Below are positions 131 through 9,165 of a stretch of DNA of 10,288 bases, piece after piece; position 1 is the first letter of the stretch; every line of letters begins with the position of its first letter. Location of the stretch: the UHGV virus genome UHGV-0129999, one strand, 5' to 3'. The notes beneath the pieces are model-generated. The model had not been told where the DNA came from. It ran no database searches and saw only the letters and a list, made by a program, of their open reading frames with translations. Source of the stretch: a virus. The position numbers and the translations under genes are program-made.

Positions 131-3042
<2,912 letters not shown>

Positions 3043-3088: not shown

Positions 3089-4087
3089 TTATCCGTTACC
3101 GCGCGACGGTTTCTGCGTGATAAACGTCTCAAGCATCTTTTCCGCAATTGCCGACCAGGTGTGACACTGGACCTTTTCAGCATTTTTCACGCGATCAACG
3201 CGAGCAATAACCTCATCCCAATCAATCCGCGACTTGATAACCATATGGTTCACCAAAGCCAGGCGATCTGGCGGAAGGCAATCGGGAGGCGTTAATACCA
3301 ACGCCCCACACATTGCCGCCTCAAGAACAGTTAATCCAAGGCTTTCGGGATGCGTAACAATAAAAACATCACTCTTACGCAATTCAGCTGCAAATTCGGT
3401 TGCTGGTACCGGCGTCCGTCTGTATGGAGTTACCGAAATATTCCCCGGATCAATGGTAACCAATCCGTCATCGGTCAACGTTCTGGCCTCATACGGAACA
3501 GTCAGACGCTGAAGGTTCATAAGGATACTTAAGGAGTGATCAAACCCACTAACATCAAATGCAGCGTGGTCTACAAAAATACGCAGAACATCGTCTGTTT
3601 TGGTTTCCAGATGGAACAGCTCCTGATTCGCTGCCCATCCAACATGTTTGTTAAAGCGATTATGACGCTCTAACCTGCCGGGATTATCCAGGTACCGCCA
3701 GGTATCATCGCGGACAGTAAAAGTAATATCAACTGGTGCCGAATCCAGCATAGAACCGTCGTATACCTGAGCTACCCATCCAGTGAATCGACGACGCAGT
3801 TGCACGCCTATTTCCCTGGGCACCGTAGTAAAATACCGCAATCCTGGCGCTAAAATGGCTTTCGCAGAACACGAGAGCGCAGCGGTCAACACAGCTTCAA
3901 CATAATCCTCCGGGCTTTCGACGCCGGGGGAATATGGACGATGGTATTGCAATGTTACCCCTGCCTCACTAAAGGCGCAGGCCAGGTTGTAAGCCCACAT
4001 TTCCGTATATGTTTTCACATCACTGATAGCTTCAAATTTTCGCCCAATGATCAGGATGTTCATCGGCTTTTCCTCATTCCATTGCAT
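3089..4087 (-). CDS. Putative GT-B fold glycosyltransferase (family 1/4-like), translationally coupled to the upstream helicase gene; occupies the position of P1 dbn (downstream of ban)
   Basis: 332-aa ORF. C-terminal region ESLGLTVLEAAMCGALVLTP matches the E-x7-E motif region of retaining GT-B glycosyltransferases (compare EGFGLxxLEAMAxGxPVI). Start ATG overlaps the helicase stop as TAATG (4085-4089). An alternative start at the ninth codon (ATG at 4063, MNILIIGRK) has a stronger GAGGAA Shine-Dalgarno. Confidence 0.6.
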   Translation of the reverse strand: MQWNEEKPMNILIIGRKFEAISDVKTYTEMWAYNLACAFSEAGVTLQYHRPYSPGVESPEDYVEAVLTAALSCSAKAILAPGLRYFTTVPREIGVQLRRRFTGWVAQVYDGSMLDSAPVDITFTVRDDTWRYLDNPGRLERHNRFNKHVGWAANQELFHLETKTDDVLRIFVDHAAFDVSGFDHSLSILMNLQRLTVPYEARTLTDDGLVTIDPGNISVTPYRRTPVPATEFAAELRKSDVFIVTHPESLGLTVLEAAMCGALVLTPPDCLPPDRLALVNHMVIKSRIDWDEVIARVDRVKNAEKVQCHTWSAIAEKMLETFITQKPSRGNG

Positions 4088-5451
4088 TAATAATCCTCTT
4101 GCCAGTCAGCACCAGCATAGTTATCAAACCGTGAGTATTGGCCGTTAAAAGCCAATCTCACCGTGCCAATTGGGCCATTTCGTTGCTTTCCGATAATTAC
4201 CTCGGCAATGCCCTTCATTTCGCTATCCGGGTGATAAACTTCGTCGCGATACAGAAACATGATCAGGTCTGCGTCCTGCTCAATTGCTCCTGATTCACGT
4301 AAATCTGAATTTACCGGTCGTTTGTCCGCACGCTGTTCAAGCGATCGATTAAGTTGTGACAATGCCACCACCGGTACTTGTAATTCCTTCGCCAACGCCT
4401 TCAGTGAGCGAGAAATCTCGGCAATTTCCAGCGTTCGGTTATCTTGCAGCTCGGGGACGCGCATAAGTTGCAGGTAGTCGATCATAATCATGCTCAAACC
4501 ACCATTTTCTTTATAAACACGACGAGCGCGGGAACGAAGCTCTGTAGGTGTCAGGGCGCTTGAGTCATCAATAAAAATATTCTGCTTGTCCAACAGAATC
4601 CCCATTGCGCCAGAAACCCGCGCCCAATCCTCGTCGTTAAGTTGCCCTGTTCGAATACGAGTCTGATCAACGCGTGCAAGAGAAGCCAGTGAGCGCATCA
4701 TCAGCTGGTGGCTCGGCATCTCAAGGCTAAAAACCAATACGGGCTTATCGTTACGGACTGCGGCATTTTCGACGAGATTCATCGCAAACGTAGTCTTCCC
4801 CATCGATGGGCGGGCGGCGACAATAATGAGATCGGACGCCTGAAGTCCTGCCGTCTTCTTATTGAGATCGGTAAATCCGGTATCAAGCCCCGTTACACCA
4901 TCATGCGGTCGCTGAAACAACTCTTCTATGCGAGATACCGTTGCATCGAGAATGCTGGCGATATCTTTTGGACCACTACCGCTCTTTTGTCGTTTTTCAG
5001 CTATTTCAAAAACGCGGCGCTCGGCCATATCCAGCAATTCATTGCTGCCCCTGCCATCCTGCGCATATCCAGCTTCGGCTATTTCATTTGCGACGGAAAT
5101 CATTTCACGAACAACCGCGCGTTCACGAACGATATCCGCATAAGCACAAATATTTGCCGCGCTGGGCGTGTTCTTTGACATCTCCGCAAGGTACGCAAAA
5201 CCACCGGCGCGTTCTAATTTACCGTTCTGTTCAAGTGCTTCAGCAAGTGTTATCAAATCAATCGGTTTGCCATGACTTAATAACCTCTCCATCTCACTGA
5301 AAATTTCACGATGAGCACTGGTATAAAAATCATCAGTAACTATACGATCTGCAACTTCATCCCAGCGGCAGTTATCAAGCATTAAGCCACCAAGTACAGC
5401 TTGTTCTGCACTAAGGGAATTTGGCATGGATTCAAGAGGGGATGCAGACAT
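4087..5451 (-). CDS. ban: Replicative DNA helicase, DnaB family (phage P1 Ban-like DnaB analogue)
   Basis: Protein is collinear with E. coli DnaB along its length (AEQAVLGGLMLDN, GFAYLAEMSKNTPSAANI, Walker A ARPSMGKTTFAMNLVENAA, IDYLQLMRVPELQDNRTLEIAEISRSLKALAKEL, SQLNRSLEQRADKRPVNSDLRESG) but diverges at the N-terminus and scattered positions, as expected for a phage paralogue. The ORF track starts at GTG 5457; ATG at 5451 is preferred because GGAG lies 5 nt upstream of it. Confidence 0.9.
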   Translation of the reverse strand: MSASPLESMPNSLSAEQAVLGGLMLDNCRWDEVADRIVTDDFYTSAHREIFSEMERLLSHGKPIDLITLAEALEQNGKLERAGGFAYLAEMSKNTPSAANICAYADIVRERAVVREMISVANEIAEAGYAQDGRGSNELLDMAERRVFEIAEKRQKSGSGPKDIASILDATVSRIEELFQRPHDGVTGLDTGFTDLNKKTAGLQASDLIIVAARPSMGKTTFAMNLVENAAVRNDKPVLVFSLEMPSHQLMMRSLASLARVDQTRIRTGQLNDEDWARVSGAMGILLDKQNIFIDDSSALTPTELRSRARRVYKENGGLSMIMIDYLQLMRVPELQDNRTLEIAEISRSLKALAKELQVPVVALSQLNRSLEQRADKRPVNSDLRESGAIEQDADLIMFLYRDEVYHPDSEMKGIAEVIIGKQRNGPIGTVRLAFNGQYSRFDNYAGADWQEDY

Positions 5452-5735
5452 TAGCACTCCACCCAGGCGTGCTGAATGTCAGATATAATCGGCATACTCA
5501 AATCACTCCTAACGATATGAGTCATCACCAGAAAATCAGGATTAATGCGCCGGACTCTTCCCGGCTGTCACACCGAATCGCCAGGATGGTGAGTCCCTGA
5601 ATCCGCTATCCTACCAACGGTGACTTGCACATTCCGGCTACCTGGTTTGTTGCCTGAGCTAGGGGAAAGGTTACCCCTTTAACGTCACCAGACCGCTAAC
5701 GACGCATGTGCCAGACGCCGTGTTACAACCAAATA

Positions 5736-5811
5736 TGGTGGCCCCTACCGGACTTGAACCGGTGACCGTGCGATTATGAGTCGCCAGCTCTAACCACTGA
5801 GCTAAAGGGCC
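5736..5811 (-). tRNA. tRNA-Ile (anticodon CAU, lysidine type; automated tools may label it tRNA-Met)
   Basis: Reverse complement GGCCCTTTAGCTCAGTGGTTAGAGCTGGCGACTCATAATCGCACGGTCACCGGTTCAAGTCCGGTAGGGGCCACCA (76 nt) folds as a canonical cloverleaf with encoded CCA; anticodon loop CUCAUAA; anticodon stem-loop nearly identical to E. coli ileX as recalled from memory. One G-A mismatch at the 27-43 pair. Confidence 0.85.
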
Positions 5812-5838
5812 GGATTACTGCCAATTTTGCTTACGCTT

Positions 5839-6666
5839 TTATTTCACCGGAACAAACGGAACAGCGGTATTACTGGTCATATACTGCGGTAATGTACCGT
5901 TCCATTTGTTGATCGCTTCCAACTCCATAACACCGGGGTTCTGGCGCAGAGCTTCACCACGTAAACGAATGGCATCAGCTTCGGCCTGGGCTTTTGTGCG
6001 AATAGCATCAGCCTGTCCGGCAGCTTCCGCGCGCAGCATGTTGGCCTCTGCTTCACGTTGTTTGACCTCTTGCTCGCGTTGCAGGGTTTTTTGGTTTGCC
6101 GTGACTTTGGCGTTAATACTGTCAATAACTGTTGGCGGGTATTCTGGCTTACCTACATAAGAGAGGCTCATCACCTGAATGCCGATTGGCGTCATTTCTT
6201 CCTGAATGTCTTTAAGGGCTGCATCAAGCAATTCGGATTTGCCACCGTCGATAAATTTGTCGGTTGTCATTTTGCTGGCTAACCGGTTCAGAGCATCTGC
6301 AACCTTCTGGCGTAGATCGGTATCAGTAATATCATCTACACCTTTGCGATAGGTCTGAAATACCGTTGTGACTTTTGCTGGATCAACCTTGTAGGCTACG
6401 CCGATGTGGTAACCAATGGTTGTTCCGTCGCTCATCTGGAAGCTGAACGGCTCATCGTATGTCTTCATTTGCTTAAAGGTCGGGAAGATATAAACTTCAG
6501 TATTCAAGCCTGTCCAGTAGCGACCAACGCCAACTACTTCACCGATACCTTTATCATCCCCCAGCTTATTTACTTTGATCCCTACGTTACCTGGCTCTAC
6601 CCGATCGCATCCGGTCAGACATAAAGAACCCAAAATAATCGCTGCACTAATCAACGTTTTTTTCAT
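5839..6666 (-). CDS. SPFH/Band-7 (stomatin/prohibitin-like) domain lipoprotein
   Basis: 275 aa; N-terminal signal peptide with lipobox (LCLTGC); central region typical of SPFH domains followed by a long Ala/Glu/Gln/Arg-rich coiled-coil tail (QREQEVKQREAEANMLRAEAAGQADAIRTKAQAEADAIRLRGEAL). AGGAAA Shine-Dalgarno upstream of ATG 6666. May correspond to P1 plp (from memory of the P1 map, not verified). Confidence 0.8.
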   Translation of the reverse strand: MKKTLISAAIILGSLCLTGCDRVEPGNVGIKVNKLGDDKGIGEVVGVGRYWTGLNTEVYIFPTFKQMKTYDEPFSFQMSDGTTIGYHIGVAYKVDPAKVTTVFQTYRKGVDDITDTDLRQKVADALNRLASKMTTDKFIDGGKSELLDAALKDIQEEMTPIGIQVMSLSYVGKPEYPPTVIDSINAKVTANQKTLQREQEVKQREAEANMLRAEAAGQADAIRTKAQAEADAIRLRGEALRQNPGVMELEAINKWNGTLPQYMTSNTAVPFVPVK

Positions 6667-6883
6667 TAATTAATTTCCTGGTTTTTTCACGAAAAAAGAC
6701 TACTGCGAAAGCTGGGTAAATGAGCGCGAGAAGGACTCCCAACAATACAAGTATTGTGCTGTTAGATGAGATCATATTTGGCAAAAGCCAAACATACAGA
6801 ACCAGTGACACAATCAAACAGAGGACGGCATAAATATATAACCGCACCCATAGCGTTCGACATTTGTTCGGATTGTTCTGCAT
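6647..6883 (-). CDS. Small two-helix integral membrane protein, overlapping the start of the SPFH lipoprotein gene
   Basis: 78-aa ORF with two hydrophobic stretches (LYIYAVLCLIVSLVLYVWLL and ILVLLGVLLALIYPAFAVVFF); GGAGTGAGAGG upstream of ATG 6883; 3' end overlaps the downstream lipoprotein gene by 20 nt, suggesting co-expression. May correspond to P1 upl. Confidence 0.55.
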   Translation of the reverse strand: MQNNPNKCRTLWVRLYIYAVLCLIVSLVLYVWLLPNMISSNSTILVLLGVLLALIYPAFAVVFFREKTRKLINEKNVD

Positions 6884-7064
6884 CCTCTCACTCCATTATT
6901 TAACGAATAAAAAAGCTGCGGTGCCGGGTGCCTCCCGGTGTCCTTTGGCTGGTTATCCACCGTGGACGGGGAAACAAGGAGAAATGAATGGACTGATATA
7001 ACCATTTCCCCGCGTGCGCTTAGCCGCATTCACCGCAACGGAAAGAGCATTCTTGGTGGACCTG

Positions 7065-7088
7065 TAGATTGGGATATGAACCCGTTAC
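7065..7088. repeat. 24-bp motif TAGATTGGGATATGAACCCGTTAC, copy 1 of 2 (plus a partial third copy at 7901..7917)
   Basis: Direct observation: 23/24 identity with 7344..7367; core GGG-ATATGA-CCC is an interrupted palindrome, and on the - strand reads GGGTTCATATCCC (tRNA T-arm-like). Confidence 0.5.
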
Positions 7089-7343
7089 AGGAGAATGCTC
7101 TTACCTGTTACGTGCTCCGTTTCGTGGAGCTAACGGCGGGTGATCAGACCGCACCAGACTGGACTTATTTCAGCGTTATGCTCATGCCAGAGAATCAAAC
7201 TGTGATGGTCGGTGCTGAACTCCGACACAGGGTTGTAGCAAGCCCCGCAAAGCGCGCACTACTGTAGTTGCGGCACATCAGCCTGTGCATTCACCACAAT
7301 GTTGAGAACACTGGTTGTCACGCTGCCTCGCGACATTTATTCA

Positions 7344-7367
7344 TAGATTGGGATATGACCCCGTTAC
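7344..7367. repeat. 24-bp motif TAGATTGGGATATGACCCCGTTAC, copy 2 of 2
   Basis: Direct observation; flanked by an inverted repeat pair (AATGTTGAGAACA at 7298..7310 and TGTTCTCAACGTT at about 7363..7375). Confidence 0.5.
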
Positions 7368-7533
7368 GCCAATGTTCTCAACGTTGTAGTGCCGGTTACG
7401 GTTCCGGCCAGGCCTCTTCCTCAACGGGGTGTTCTCCATACGGACTACCGTTTATTGGTCGTTCCTGCGGTTTATGTTGTGAAGCCAGATGCTTATCTTC
7501 TGGTTGCTTCTAAGAGCTGCACTTCATCACAAC

Positions 7534-7607
7534 GGTAAGGGTACTTCGTAGGGATTCGAACCCTCTGCCAAGCTCGGCGATCTCCGACGTCGCAAAATAC
7601 CCTTACC
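7534..7607 (-). ncRNA. Non-canonical tRNA-like element (possible pseudo-tRNA or structured RNA) directly 3' of tRNA-Thr
   Basis: The - strand reads GGTAAGGGTATTTTGCGACGTCGGAGATCGCCGAGCTTGGCAGAGGGTTCGAATCCCTACGAAGTACCCTTACC (74 nt): perfect 10-bp terminal helix (GGTAAGGGTA / TACCCTTACC), canonical T-loop GGGTTCGAATCCC, but no recognisable D-arm or anticodon arm and no encoded CCA. Lies 8 nt after tRNA-Thr. Confidence 0.3.
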
Positions 7608-7615
7608 TGTTGTGC

Positions 7616-7692
7616 TGGTGCCGATTAACGGACTCGAACCGCTGACATCCTGCTTACAAGGCAGGCGCTCTACCAACTGAGCTAAACCGGCA
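7616..7692 (-). tRNA. tRNA-Thr (anticodon UGU)
   Basis: Reverse complement TGCCGGTTTAGCTCAGTTGGTAGAGCGCCTGCCTTGTAAGCAGGATGTCAGCGGTTCGAGTCCGTTAATCGGCACCA (77 nt): 7-bp acceptor stem, D-arm GCTCAGTTGGTAGAGC, anticodon loop CUUGUAA, T-arm GGTTCGAGTCC, encoded CCA. Confidence 0.85.
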
Positions 7693-7693
7693 T

Positions 7694-7769
7694 TGGCGAT
7701 GGTGGATGGATTTGAACCATCGACCCGTTGATTAACAGTCAACCGCTCTAACCGCTGAGCTACACCATC
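7694..7769 (-). tRNA. tRNA-Asn (anticodon GUU)
   Basis: Reverse complement GATGGTGTAGCTCAGCGGTTAGAGCGGTTGACTGTTAATCAACGGGTCGATGGTTCAAATCCATCCACCATCGCCA (76 nt): canonical cloverleaf, anticodon loop CUGUUAA, encoded CCA; separated from tRNA-Thr by 1 nt. Confidence 0.85.
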
Positions 7770-8000: not shown

Positions 8001-8537
8001 ATGGCCCCTTATGCAGATCTGTCAATGCTGCTTCAACTCGATATTGGTTGGGATGTTTACTGCCGTGCCAATGAGCGAGAAGTTTCAGAACTGCCGATCT
8101 CTATTGCCATTGGTGATGTGAATATTACTAAATCGCTTGAGGACGCTGTTAACGCGCTTAATACATCAAGTTTAGTCGCTGCTATGGGGGAGATTAACCA
8201 GACCCTTAACACTGGCTCAGGAAGCTCGTCAGGCTCTGGTTCAGGCGGCGGCACTGCCACTCCCCCACCAGCACTAACAGAAGAGCAAATTGAATCTCTG
8301 AAAGTAGCAACTGAACAGTTTGGGGTTGTTTTCAACCAGACAACAGCGCCCACAACTGCGTTACAACAGCAGTATGAACGAGCGAAGGAAAGCGCCAACG
8401 TAGCCATAACTGCTTATAACCATGCTATCGGTACCGCGCTTGCGGAAGCATCAGCAAATAAGGTCAGCACAGCCAGCGCAGTTGCCGTTTTGGTTCCTGA
8501 TTCTGTTCTTGATGAATTAAACAAAGCGGCACAGTAA
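8001..8537 (+). CDS. Hypothetical two-domain protein with a Gly/Ser-rich linker (GSGSSSGSGSGGG); function unknown
   Basis: 178-aa ORF on the strand of the downstream genes; no strong Shine-Dalgarno at the ATG at 8001, so the start is uncertain. No TM segment or recognised motif. Confidence 0.45.
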   Translation: MAPYADLSMLLQLDIGWDVYCRANEREVSELPISIAIGDVNITKSLEDAVNALNTSSLVAAMGEINQTLNTGSGSSSGSGSGGGTATPPPALTEEQIESLKVATEQFGVVFNQTTAPTTALQQQYERAKESANVAITAYNHAIGTALAEASANKVSTASAVAVLVPDSVLDELNKAAQ

Positions 8538-8576
8538 CAAAGGACTTCATTGATAATTTTTCTTCAGGAGGAAGGC

Positions 8577-8999
8577 ATGTCATTCTTTTCTACGTTAAAA
8601 ACAGCTTTGTCTTTGAAGGAGAAACTTGCTGCTACTGGTGTTCTTGTTCTGATTTGCGCACTTGTTGGTGCTGGGTTTGCATGGGAACGTCATCAGCTAA
8701 AGCAAGCCATGGAGAAAATTGGCAGTCTTGATCAGGCTGTTAAGGAACGTGATAAGTCAATAATGGATCTTAACCAGACCATTGAGACGATGAACAAAGC
8801 AGAGCAACATTTTCACAGCCAGGAAGTGAAAAATGAATCAGAACAAGCCAAATATGCTGACAGGCAAATGGAACGAAAAGCTGAAGTTCAGAAACAACTG
8901 GTTGCGGCGGGTAATGTTCGCCAGCGCATTCCTGCTGACACTCAGCGGTTGCTCCGGCAGTCGATCAGCGAATTTAACGCCGACGCCGACAAAGGTTAA
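8577..8999 (+). CDS. Rz-like inner-membrane spanin (i-spanin)-like protein: N-terminal TM anchor plus periplasmic coiled coil
   Basis: AGGAGGAAGG Shine-Dalgarno before ATG 8577 (the ORF track's 8550 start is TTG). Single N-terminal TM (LAATGVLVLICALVGAGFAW) then charged helical region; C-terminal QKQLVAAGNVRQRIPADTQRL resembles the lambda Rz segment RDDVAAGRRRLHIKA. Contains an embedded +1-frame lipoprotein gene. Confidence 0.6.
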   Translation: MSFFSTLKTALSLKEKLAATGVLVLICALVGAGFAWERHQLKQAMEKIGSLDQAVKERDKSIMDLNQTIETMNKAEQHFHSQEVKNESEQAKYADRQMERKAEVQKQLVAAGNVRQRIPADTQRLLRQSISEFNADADKG

Positions 9000-9165
9000 C
9001 CACCCTGCCCCCAAAAGTGCATTTATGTGCAGGATGCCAGAGTTTAGCAGTGAATATTTTGATGATCTGCCAGCGTATATCCTCGATACAGAAACGATGC
9101 TGATGGGGATTAACAGGAAGAATCGCAACGTTAATGATTACAACCGAGCTATTAGCGGTAACTAA
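8914..9165 (+). CDS. Rz1-like outer-membrane lipoprotein (o-spanin)-like, starting inside the preceding gene in the +1 frame and extending beyond it
   Basis: ATG at 8914 preceded by GGCGGG; signal peptide MFASAFLLTLSG with lipobox LSGC, Ser at +2 (outer-membrane sorting); Pro-rich mature region (TPTPTKVNHPAP) with a later Cys. The ORF track's 8833 start gives a 27-aa non-hydrophobic extension, so 8914 is preferred. Confidence 0.55.
   Translation: MFASAFLLTLSGCSGSRSANLTPTPTKVNHPAPKSAFMCRMPEFSSEYFDDLPAYILDTETMLMGINRKNRNVNDYNRAISGN

Follow-up and report, generated by a model that had tools for sequence, protein, structure and literature searches.

Temperate phages can alter the surface glycans of their hosts with Gtr systems, whose membrane-embedded GT2 and GT-C glycosyltransferases act on the periplasmic side and are expressed in lysogens. 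The genes considered here lie on the minus strand at positions 3089..5451 of a stretch of DNA from the viral genome UHGV-0129999 (the window, 10,288 nucleotides in all), and their closest described counterpart is the ban-dbn pair of phage P1. In the P1 record (AF234172, NC_005856) ban is labelled a replicative helicase and dbn, which stands for 'downstream of ban', is labelled 'function unknown, possible glycosyltransferase'. The same gene appears as 'putative glycosyltransferase, Dbn' in RCS47, as 'glycosyltransferase family 4 protein' in RefSeq and as 'glt' in P7. A previous reading of the window from its letters alone (the original prediction) took the downstream gene to be uncharacterised, but judged by its sequence the pair is the already annotated ban-dbn of a P1-like phage-plasmid. 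The gene pair itself is thus known; the new results are the connection of dbn with pmgO, pmgP and pmgQ and the association of its bacterial relatives with a WaaZ-like gene. We propose, with a probability of roughly 0.55, that Dbn is an enzyme that belongs with PmgO, PmgP and PmgQ to a phage module for building glycans, and not a partner of the helicase.

The dbn gene (3089..4087, minus strand) encodes 332 amino acids when read from the ATG that overlaps ban. Its product is a divergent, compact GT4-like protein of the GT-B class and not a standard GT4 member, an assignment for which the sequence case looks marginal and the case from the predicted structure clear. An AlphaFold2 model built on a 16-sequence alignment (alignment A1, 16 homologues with identity down to 39%) has a mean predicted local distance difference test score (pLDDT) of 87.9 and a predicted template modelling score (pTM) of 0.85. 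It contains two Rossmann-like beta/alpha/beta domains with a cleft between them, and the GT-B fold that had been suggested for the 332-residue protein is supported by this model. The E-x7-E signature named in the original prediction is also present. Its codons (3320..3346, minus strand) lie within T-H-P-E-S-L-G-L-T-V-L-E-A-A-M-C-G, and the motif itself reads E248-SLGLTVL-E256. In alignment A1, E248, E256, H246, S249, G251, A257, A258 and G261 are invariant in 16 of 16 sequences, as are the surroundings T-H-x-E-S-x-G...E-A-A-x-x-G. In the model a strand (241-243) leads into a loop with E248, a helix (251-259) with E256 and a further strand (263-266), which places the motif at a strand-loop-helix junction in the C-terminal Rossmann domain, the canonical GT4 position. 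The motif also lines up with that of WaaG in hhalign, and residues 229-315 match the C-terminal half of Pfam Glycos_transf_1 (profile positions 83-169).

Other searches show how far Dbn has diverged. It has no match in NCBIfam or PADLOC, and sequence searches of the PDB with the single protein or a profile return only noise (KtrA to the N-terminal domain; PimA at E ~0.9). No Gly-rich loop or GG motif is visible at its N-terminus. In a fold-level comparison Dbn scores 16.0 with T4 DNA alpha-glucosyltransferase and 15.4 with the phage HY126 glycosyltransferase, and ordinary bacterial GT4 enzymes outscore these DNA glycosyltransferases. The family is small, with 23 clusters at 90% identity among 5.8 billion proteins. 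A full profile search recovers 378 representatives among 1.84 billion, many fewer than one would expect from a typical GT4 profile. Dbn is acidic (isoelectric point, pI, 5.6), and no hydrophobic segment was found in Dbn, PmgO, PmgP or PmgQ (maximum Kyte-Doolittle 19-residue mean <=1.53); Dbn is accordingly predicted to be a soluble cytoplasmic protein without a transmembrane segment. Longer proteins that include a Dbn-like domain also exist. In the Stenotrophomonas jumbo phage RAS14 (L105, 6590..8248) the domain is N-terminal in a protein of 552 amino acids (profile E = 3e-46, residues 19-319), and elsewhere its fusion partner is a methyltransferase (P0230) or a second GT1 domain (P0218). The Pfam domains of these fusion proteins are heterogeneous (methyltransferase, second GT1, hydrolase), and none of the fusions is joined to an MptE-like domain by Pfam.

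Bacterial homologues of Dbn are encoded in polysaccharide clusters (L003, the Colwellia-type L004-L007, L011 and L016) together with Wza/KpsD-like exporter genes, KpsE/M/T-like ATP-binding cassette (ABC) transporter genes and other glycosyltransferase genes. At all of these loci the homologue is directly downstream of an MptE-like gene, and a profile of these MptE-like neighbours matches E. coli WaaZ with an hhalign probability of 97.7% (E = 2e-12). L016, on chromosome 3 of Brucella pseudogrignonensis, is the only bacterial locus added by a scan of genome contigs; a scan of viral contigs was swamped by P1-like copies and gave no further Dbn contexts. The closest bacterial cluster, L011 (32-34% guanine plus cytosine), has no match in E. 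coli genomes and could be linked to no known K-antigen structure. A relationship of Dbn to WaaS, raised by the WaaZ/WaaS analogy, was ruled out (BLASTP E = 1.5, hhalign 0.2%).

In phages, all-against-all BLASTP of the neighbouring proteins reveals a module of PmgO-, PmgP-, Dbn- and PmgQ-like genes (O, P, Dbn and Q) in at least five lineages other than P1: L009, L010, L099/L104, L101 and L103. The order is O, P, Dbn, Q in L101 and in E. coli phage EP_H11 (L099) with L104, O, P', P, Dbn, Q in L103, and P, Dbn, Q, O in L010. L009 has a PmgO-like gene, a PmgP-like gene, an open reading frame (ORF) of 189 amino acids, and then Dbn-like and PmgQ-like genes; its MptE-like protein upstream of Dbn is 54% identical to P1 PmgP. 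The BLASTP matches behind the module in L009, L010, L099, L101 and L103 have E values of 1e-14 to 1e-89, and the Dbn copies share at most 57% identity. Citrobacter phage phiNP has O, P and Q without Dbn. The PmgP family comprises 328 clusters compared with 23 for Dbn, and Dbn therefore appears to be an optional addition to a commoner O-P-Q core.

The gene order of P1 indicates that the O-P-Dbn-Q module is split in this phage. Along one strand, P1 has ban and dbn, an antiparallel tail block (5-6-24-7-25-26) and then pmgL-M-N-O-P-ppp-Q. The pmgO-pmgP-ppp-pmgQ segment is ~6 kb from dbn in the same orientation and falls outside the window, and the phosphatase gene ppp fills the slot between pmgP and pmgQ where dbn sits in other phages. 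In P1 the ban operon has C1 operators, and so does the pmgN-pmgQ operon.

All three candidate partners are glycosyltransferase-like by fold, even though their genes are named 'putative morphogenetic'. PmgO and PmgP are paralogues (hhalign 97.4% probability) with weak Pfam MptE-like matches and a weak profile match to Campylobacter CstII (E = 0.02), and their predicted fold is of the Maf/CstI/MptE type. Folds of this type are used by transferases of keto-sugar acids activated with cytidine monophosphate (CMP), such as sialic acid, pseudaminic acid and 3-deoxy-D-manno-oct-2-ulosonic acid (Kdo). PmgQ has an invariant D79-x-D81 and an H-G-x-P-R-P-W motif, and its profile matches the GT8 structures of Skp1 alpha-galactosyltransferase (6mw5, E = 1e-4) and glycogenin (~1e-3); it is predicted to be a GT8-like GT-A enzyme. 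When the phage proteins are compared with all K-12 Waa enzymes by hhalign, the best matches are weak and fall in the expected fold class (PmgQ-WaaJ 43%, PmgP-WaaZ 6-16%, Dbn-WaaG 2%).

The ban gene (4087..5451, minus strand) encodes 454 amino acids from the ATG at 5451, and an in-frame GTG at 5457 extends the ORF upstream. The original assignment of its product to the DnaB family of replicative helicases agrees with the P1 annotation and is borne out by matches above the curated cutoffs to the Pfam domains DnaB_C (PF03796, 1e-107) and DnaB N-domain (PF00772, 4e-35) and to TIGR00665 (571.9 bits, cutoff 385.25). Window Dbn is 97.3% identical to P1 Dbn in protein sequence and occupies the same place after ban with the same overlap. 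This overlap, which the original prediction had correctly noted, can be read directly as TAATG at 4085..4089 on the minus strand. At the junction GATTATTAATGCAATGG the TAA of ban and the ATG of the longest dbn ORF have one base in common. TAATG is kept in 71/80 P1-like viral loci, TGATG replaces it in 2/80, and 7/80 have an inserted ORF. One-base overlaps of stop and start codons are ordinary in phage operons.

The overlapping ATG may not be the dbn start that is used. An alternative start at M9 (MNILIIG; 4061..4063, minus strand) has a GAGG 8 nucleotides upstream and corresponds to the start of every non-P1 homologue, including all of the distant ones. The conserved core of Dbn is the 324 amino acids that begin at M9 (ATG at 4063), 24 nucleotides downstream of the overlapping ATG, and a GAGG lies 7-8 nucleotides upstream of each candidate ATG. 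The seven inserted ORFs are 101 amino acids long and lack a Pfam match, and in P1 variants of this kind (L087 type) M9 is the only possible dbn start. In L087 itself the inserted ORF occupies 5699..6004 and has an ATGA overlap with the M9 start. Co-transcription of ban and dbn is not in doubt whichever start is used, because the gap from the ban stop is <=21 nucleotides in either case; a promoter and terminator scan found neither element between the two genes. Outside the P1 lineage no helicase gene was found beside a Dbn homologue in the contexts examined. The pairing that had been taken as a functional clue is thus confined to one lineage and broken by the extra ORF in 7/80 of its loci, and the adjacency looks like an incidental result of genome rearrangement that carries no functional signal.

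If Dbn belongs to the glycan-building module, it would use a nucleotide-sugar donor to add a hexose-type residue beside a Kdo-type residue set by PmgO/PmgP-type partners. Once C1 repression is lifted in the lytic programme, Dbn and PmgQ could then assemble a short glycan on the cytoplasmic side. The acceptor might be a lipid-linked glycan of the host envelope, with the lipid A-core of lipopolysaccharide (LPS) foremost, a choice that we make tentatively and at somewhat less than even odds. The outcome would be a remodelled receptor, a change that plaque assays in the laboratory would not require. The analysis shows the identity, fold and motif conservation of the gene product, the purifying selection on the gene and its conserved neighbourhood, whereas the donor, the acceptor, the order of action and the biological benefit are what we infer. 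Remodelling of LPS or another lipid-linked glycan ranks first among the possible roles because E. coli K-12 has, to our knowledge, no CMP-activated keto-sugar acid other than CMP-Kdo, the lipid A-core is the obvious Kdo-bearing acceptor that faces the cytoplasm, and the LPS core is the receptor of P1. The original prediction offered DNA, a receptor in the cell envelope or a protein partner as the target of Dbn. Modification of the envelope is the most plausible of the three; a protein target is possible, and this protein is probably not Ban.

A more specific version of the proposal, which we regard as possible and put forward with less confidence than the choice of acceptor, is that Dbn, PmgO, PmgP and PmgQ constitute an uncharacterised four-enzyme pathway. 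In E. coli K-12 its donors would be CMP-Kdo and a nucleotide-hexose, and during lytic growth it would either remodel the inner or outer core of LPS or glycosylate a protein. On this view the pathway would be common among the temperate phages of Gammaproteobacteria, and the P1 copy would be split. If it is correct, P1 encodes an overlooked system for glycosylating surfaces or virions, and, with the LPS core as the target, cytoplasmic phage enzymes would be remodelling the receptor in a new way. The module occurs in hundreds of prophage protein clusters. P1 is a standard transducing phage in which deletions of all four genes have already been made, and the four-gene hypothesis is consequently testable.

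Several observations weigh against the proposed module and its envelope target. Dbn scores 25.1 bits with Glycos_transf_1, which is below the Pfam gathering cutoff of 26.4. Its segment 171-FVDHAAFDVSGFDHSL-186 contains no Arg or Lys at the position of the GT4 G-R...K-G segment, where the alignment has low confidence. In GT4 enzymes the Arg and Lys of this segment bind the donor diphosphate. Since such basic residues appear to be absent here, and since D173 and H174 are invariant throughout alignment A1, bacterial members included, the donor chemistry of Dbn may be atypical. PmgO and PmgP are only remotely related to the WaaZ-like proteins encoded beside the bacterial Dbn homologues (hhalign 73% over 36 columns for PmgP, 27% for PmgO). 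In two Citrobacter-type P1 relatives (L008, 3806..5957; L102, 2860..4951) Dbn follows two unrelated ORFs of unknown function, a third context that is unlike both the ban pairing and the O-P-Q module. A lytic-only system could alter only the surface LPS made after induction, and the known ban-operon promoter is deleted in the window copy. In-frame deletions of dbn, pmgO, pmgP and pmgQ cause no plaquing defect, and all four are among 24 knockouts with unchanged plaquing and anti-restriction (Gonzales et al. 2022, PMC9024508). All four are also non-essential by CRISPR interference (CRISPRi; PMC10695390), and a literature search found no functional study of dbn, pmgO, pmgP or pmgQ. As a separate observation, the ORFs ahead of Dbn in L008 and L102 are conserved (~210-230 and ~170 amino acids), and an Rrf2-family regulator is encoded downstream of Dbn.

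Dbn and its three partners could instead place a short glycan on a virion or host protein. We consider this unlikely, though it ranks second after the remodelling of LPS or another lipid-linked glycan because of the Maf-type and Skp1/glycogenin-type matches and the structural genes nearby. Precedents include Maf acting on flagellin, GT8 enzymes acting on Skp1 or glycogenin, and the glycosylated capsids of mycobacteriophages. The best PDB sequence matches of PmgQ are to protein-directed GT8 enzymes (Skp1 alpha-galactosyltransferase and glycogenin). The module is directly upstream of terminase and head genes in lambdoid relatives, and its P1 counterpart has tail genes on either side and follows the late promoter LPpmgL. 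The P7 record, moreover, calls the homologues of pmgN, pmgO, pmgP and pmgQ (hdmA-D) 'head morphogenesis'. The bacterial relatives of Dbn, however, reside in clusters for exported polysaccharides with transporter genes. A literature search found no report of glycosylated P1 virion proteins, and the lack of a plaque defect in the deletions (PMC9024508) also argues against a protein target. A different reading, that Dbn is a non-catalytic passenger decaying after being cut off from its module, is improbable. It would account for the dispensability of dbn in two independent screens, the score below the Pfam threshold and the apparent lack of the basic residues of the canonical donor-phosphate loop. 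Yet dbn is intact in 81/81 P1-like copies (the window and 80 viral loci) and is under purifying selection, with a ratio of nonsynonymous to synonymous polymorphism (pN/pS) of 0.127 over 56 distinct alleles; the same ratio is 0.055 in ban, and in the tail genes 5 and 6 it is 0.093 and 0.068, respectively. The invariance of D173 and H174 extends across the family, including bacteria, and the unusual segment is therefore a family trait and not decay.

The readings that give weight to the helicase fare worse still. Sugars added to phage DNA bases might protect against restriction in coordination with replication by Ban, as the original prediction allowed, and both the adjacency to the helicase and the location of P1 dbn in the same transcription unit region as the Dmt methyltransferase gene fit this role. 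Against it, bacterial GT4 enzymes outscore the DNA enzymes at the level of fold, the homologues and partners of Dbn are of polysaccharide type, the helicase adjacency is not conserved, and Dbn is acidic (pI 5.6). We know of no hydroxymethyl- or hydroxy-pyrimidine pathway in P1, and P1 DNA is cut by common restriction enzymes. With anti-restriction unchanged by deletion of dbn (PMC9024508) and relatives and partners that point to polysaccharides, DNA modification is disfavoured and has a very low probability. The least probable reading is that Dbn modifies Ban or another replisome component and that translational coupling fixes their stoichiometry. The TAATG in 71/80 P1-like loci and the co-transcription of ban and dbn are consistent with it, but 0 of the non-P1 homologues adjoin a helicase, an extra ORF intervenes in 7/80 P1-like copies, and the conserved start is M9 and not the overlapping ATG. 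Ban can also stand in for E. coli DnaB, which counts against such a partnership, and the comparative context largely refutes it.

By Megablast the entire window falls among P1-like phages and phage-plasmids, with identities of 98.6% to Punavirus P1 MH422554, 98.3% to RCS47 and 97.3% to reference P1; 1075 plasmid records, chiefly from E. coli, match it. Two segments that are present in every close P1-like relative are absent. The first, of 1451 bp, is missing near position 803 (affected region 131..1399); gene 7, which is essential by CRISPRi, is lost with it, and the N-terminal part of gp25 is joined to the C-terminal part of gp24. The second, of 5.6 kb, is missing near position 8009, and with it the C1-controlled promoter and operator of ban as well as dmt, hrdC/rdgC, uhr and upfC. 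The window is colinear with none of the best phage and plasmid matches listed, so this copy may be a defective element or a product of misassembly.

The upstream members of the ban operon (5736..7769, minus strand) were located by colinearity with P1 and RCS47. All of them are on the same strand and comprise a tRNA with a CAT anticodon (5736..5811), an SPFH-domain gene (5839..6666; Pfam Band_7, 1e-30), an ORF for a membrane protein of 78 amino acids that overlaps the SPFH gene (6647..6883), and genes for tRNA-Thr (7616..7691) and tRNA-Asn (7694..7769), with the three tRNAs identified by ARAGORN. ARAGORN calls the first of these tRNA-Met (CAT), and the P1 record labels its homologue tRNA-Ile2, ileX-like. 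The SPFH/Band-7 gene and the overlapping 78-residue ORF (5839..6883) replace tciA-tciB-tciC of P1, as they do in RCS47, and this position is a variable cargo slot in the ban operon. Elsewhere in the window, the homologue of P1 ppfA (8550..8999) matches a PHROG family of Rz-like spanins (1e-25), and the mlp homologue (8833..9165) lies out of frame within it, an arrangement that resembles that of Rz1-type lipoproteins.

Compared with P1 itself, the window copy bears the SPFH gene in place of tciABC and has the two deletions, and nothing essential is different. Dbn is just 10-15% identical to retaining GT4 enzymes (PimA, BshA, WaaG, WaaB and sucrose-phosphate synthase), is compact at 324 amino acids, shows no N-terminal Gly-rich loop of their kind and seems to have an invariant D-H at the G-R...K-G position. 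We take T4 alpha-glucosyltransferase to belong to GT72 and HY126 to represent a 5-hydroxycytosine arabinosyltransferase system, and Dbn has no sequence similarity in PDB searches to such enzymes (GT63/GT72, HY126), which it resembles only at the level of fold.

A further parallel is with the waa locus of the host. The GT4-like, GT8-like and MptE/WaaZ-like folds predicted for the module are those of WaaG/WaaB, WaaO/WaaJ and WaaZ, respectively, and the bacterial homologues of Dbn directly follow a gene that resembles E. coli WaaZ, the GT73 KdoIII transferase. None of the phage proteins is closely related to a Waa enzyme of the host (best hhalign probabilities 2-44%), and the module has no heptosyltransferase or kinase; the likeness is one of fold class, and action on LPS is putative. 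Among phage systems, the seroconversion genes (GtrA/GtrB/GtrV; P. aeruginosa phage D3) are likewise accessory genes of temperate phages that are dispensable for growth. Neither a GtrA flippase, GtrB nor a GT-C protein was recognized here, and there is no Gtr Pfam match. Unlike the Gtr proteins, Dbn, PmgO, PmgP and PmgQ have no transmembrane segments and in P1 are encoded behind C1 operators.

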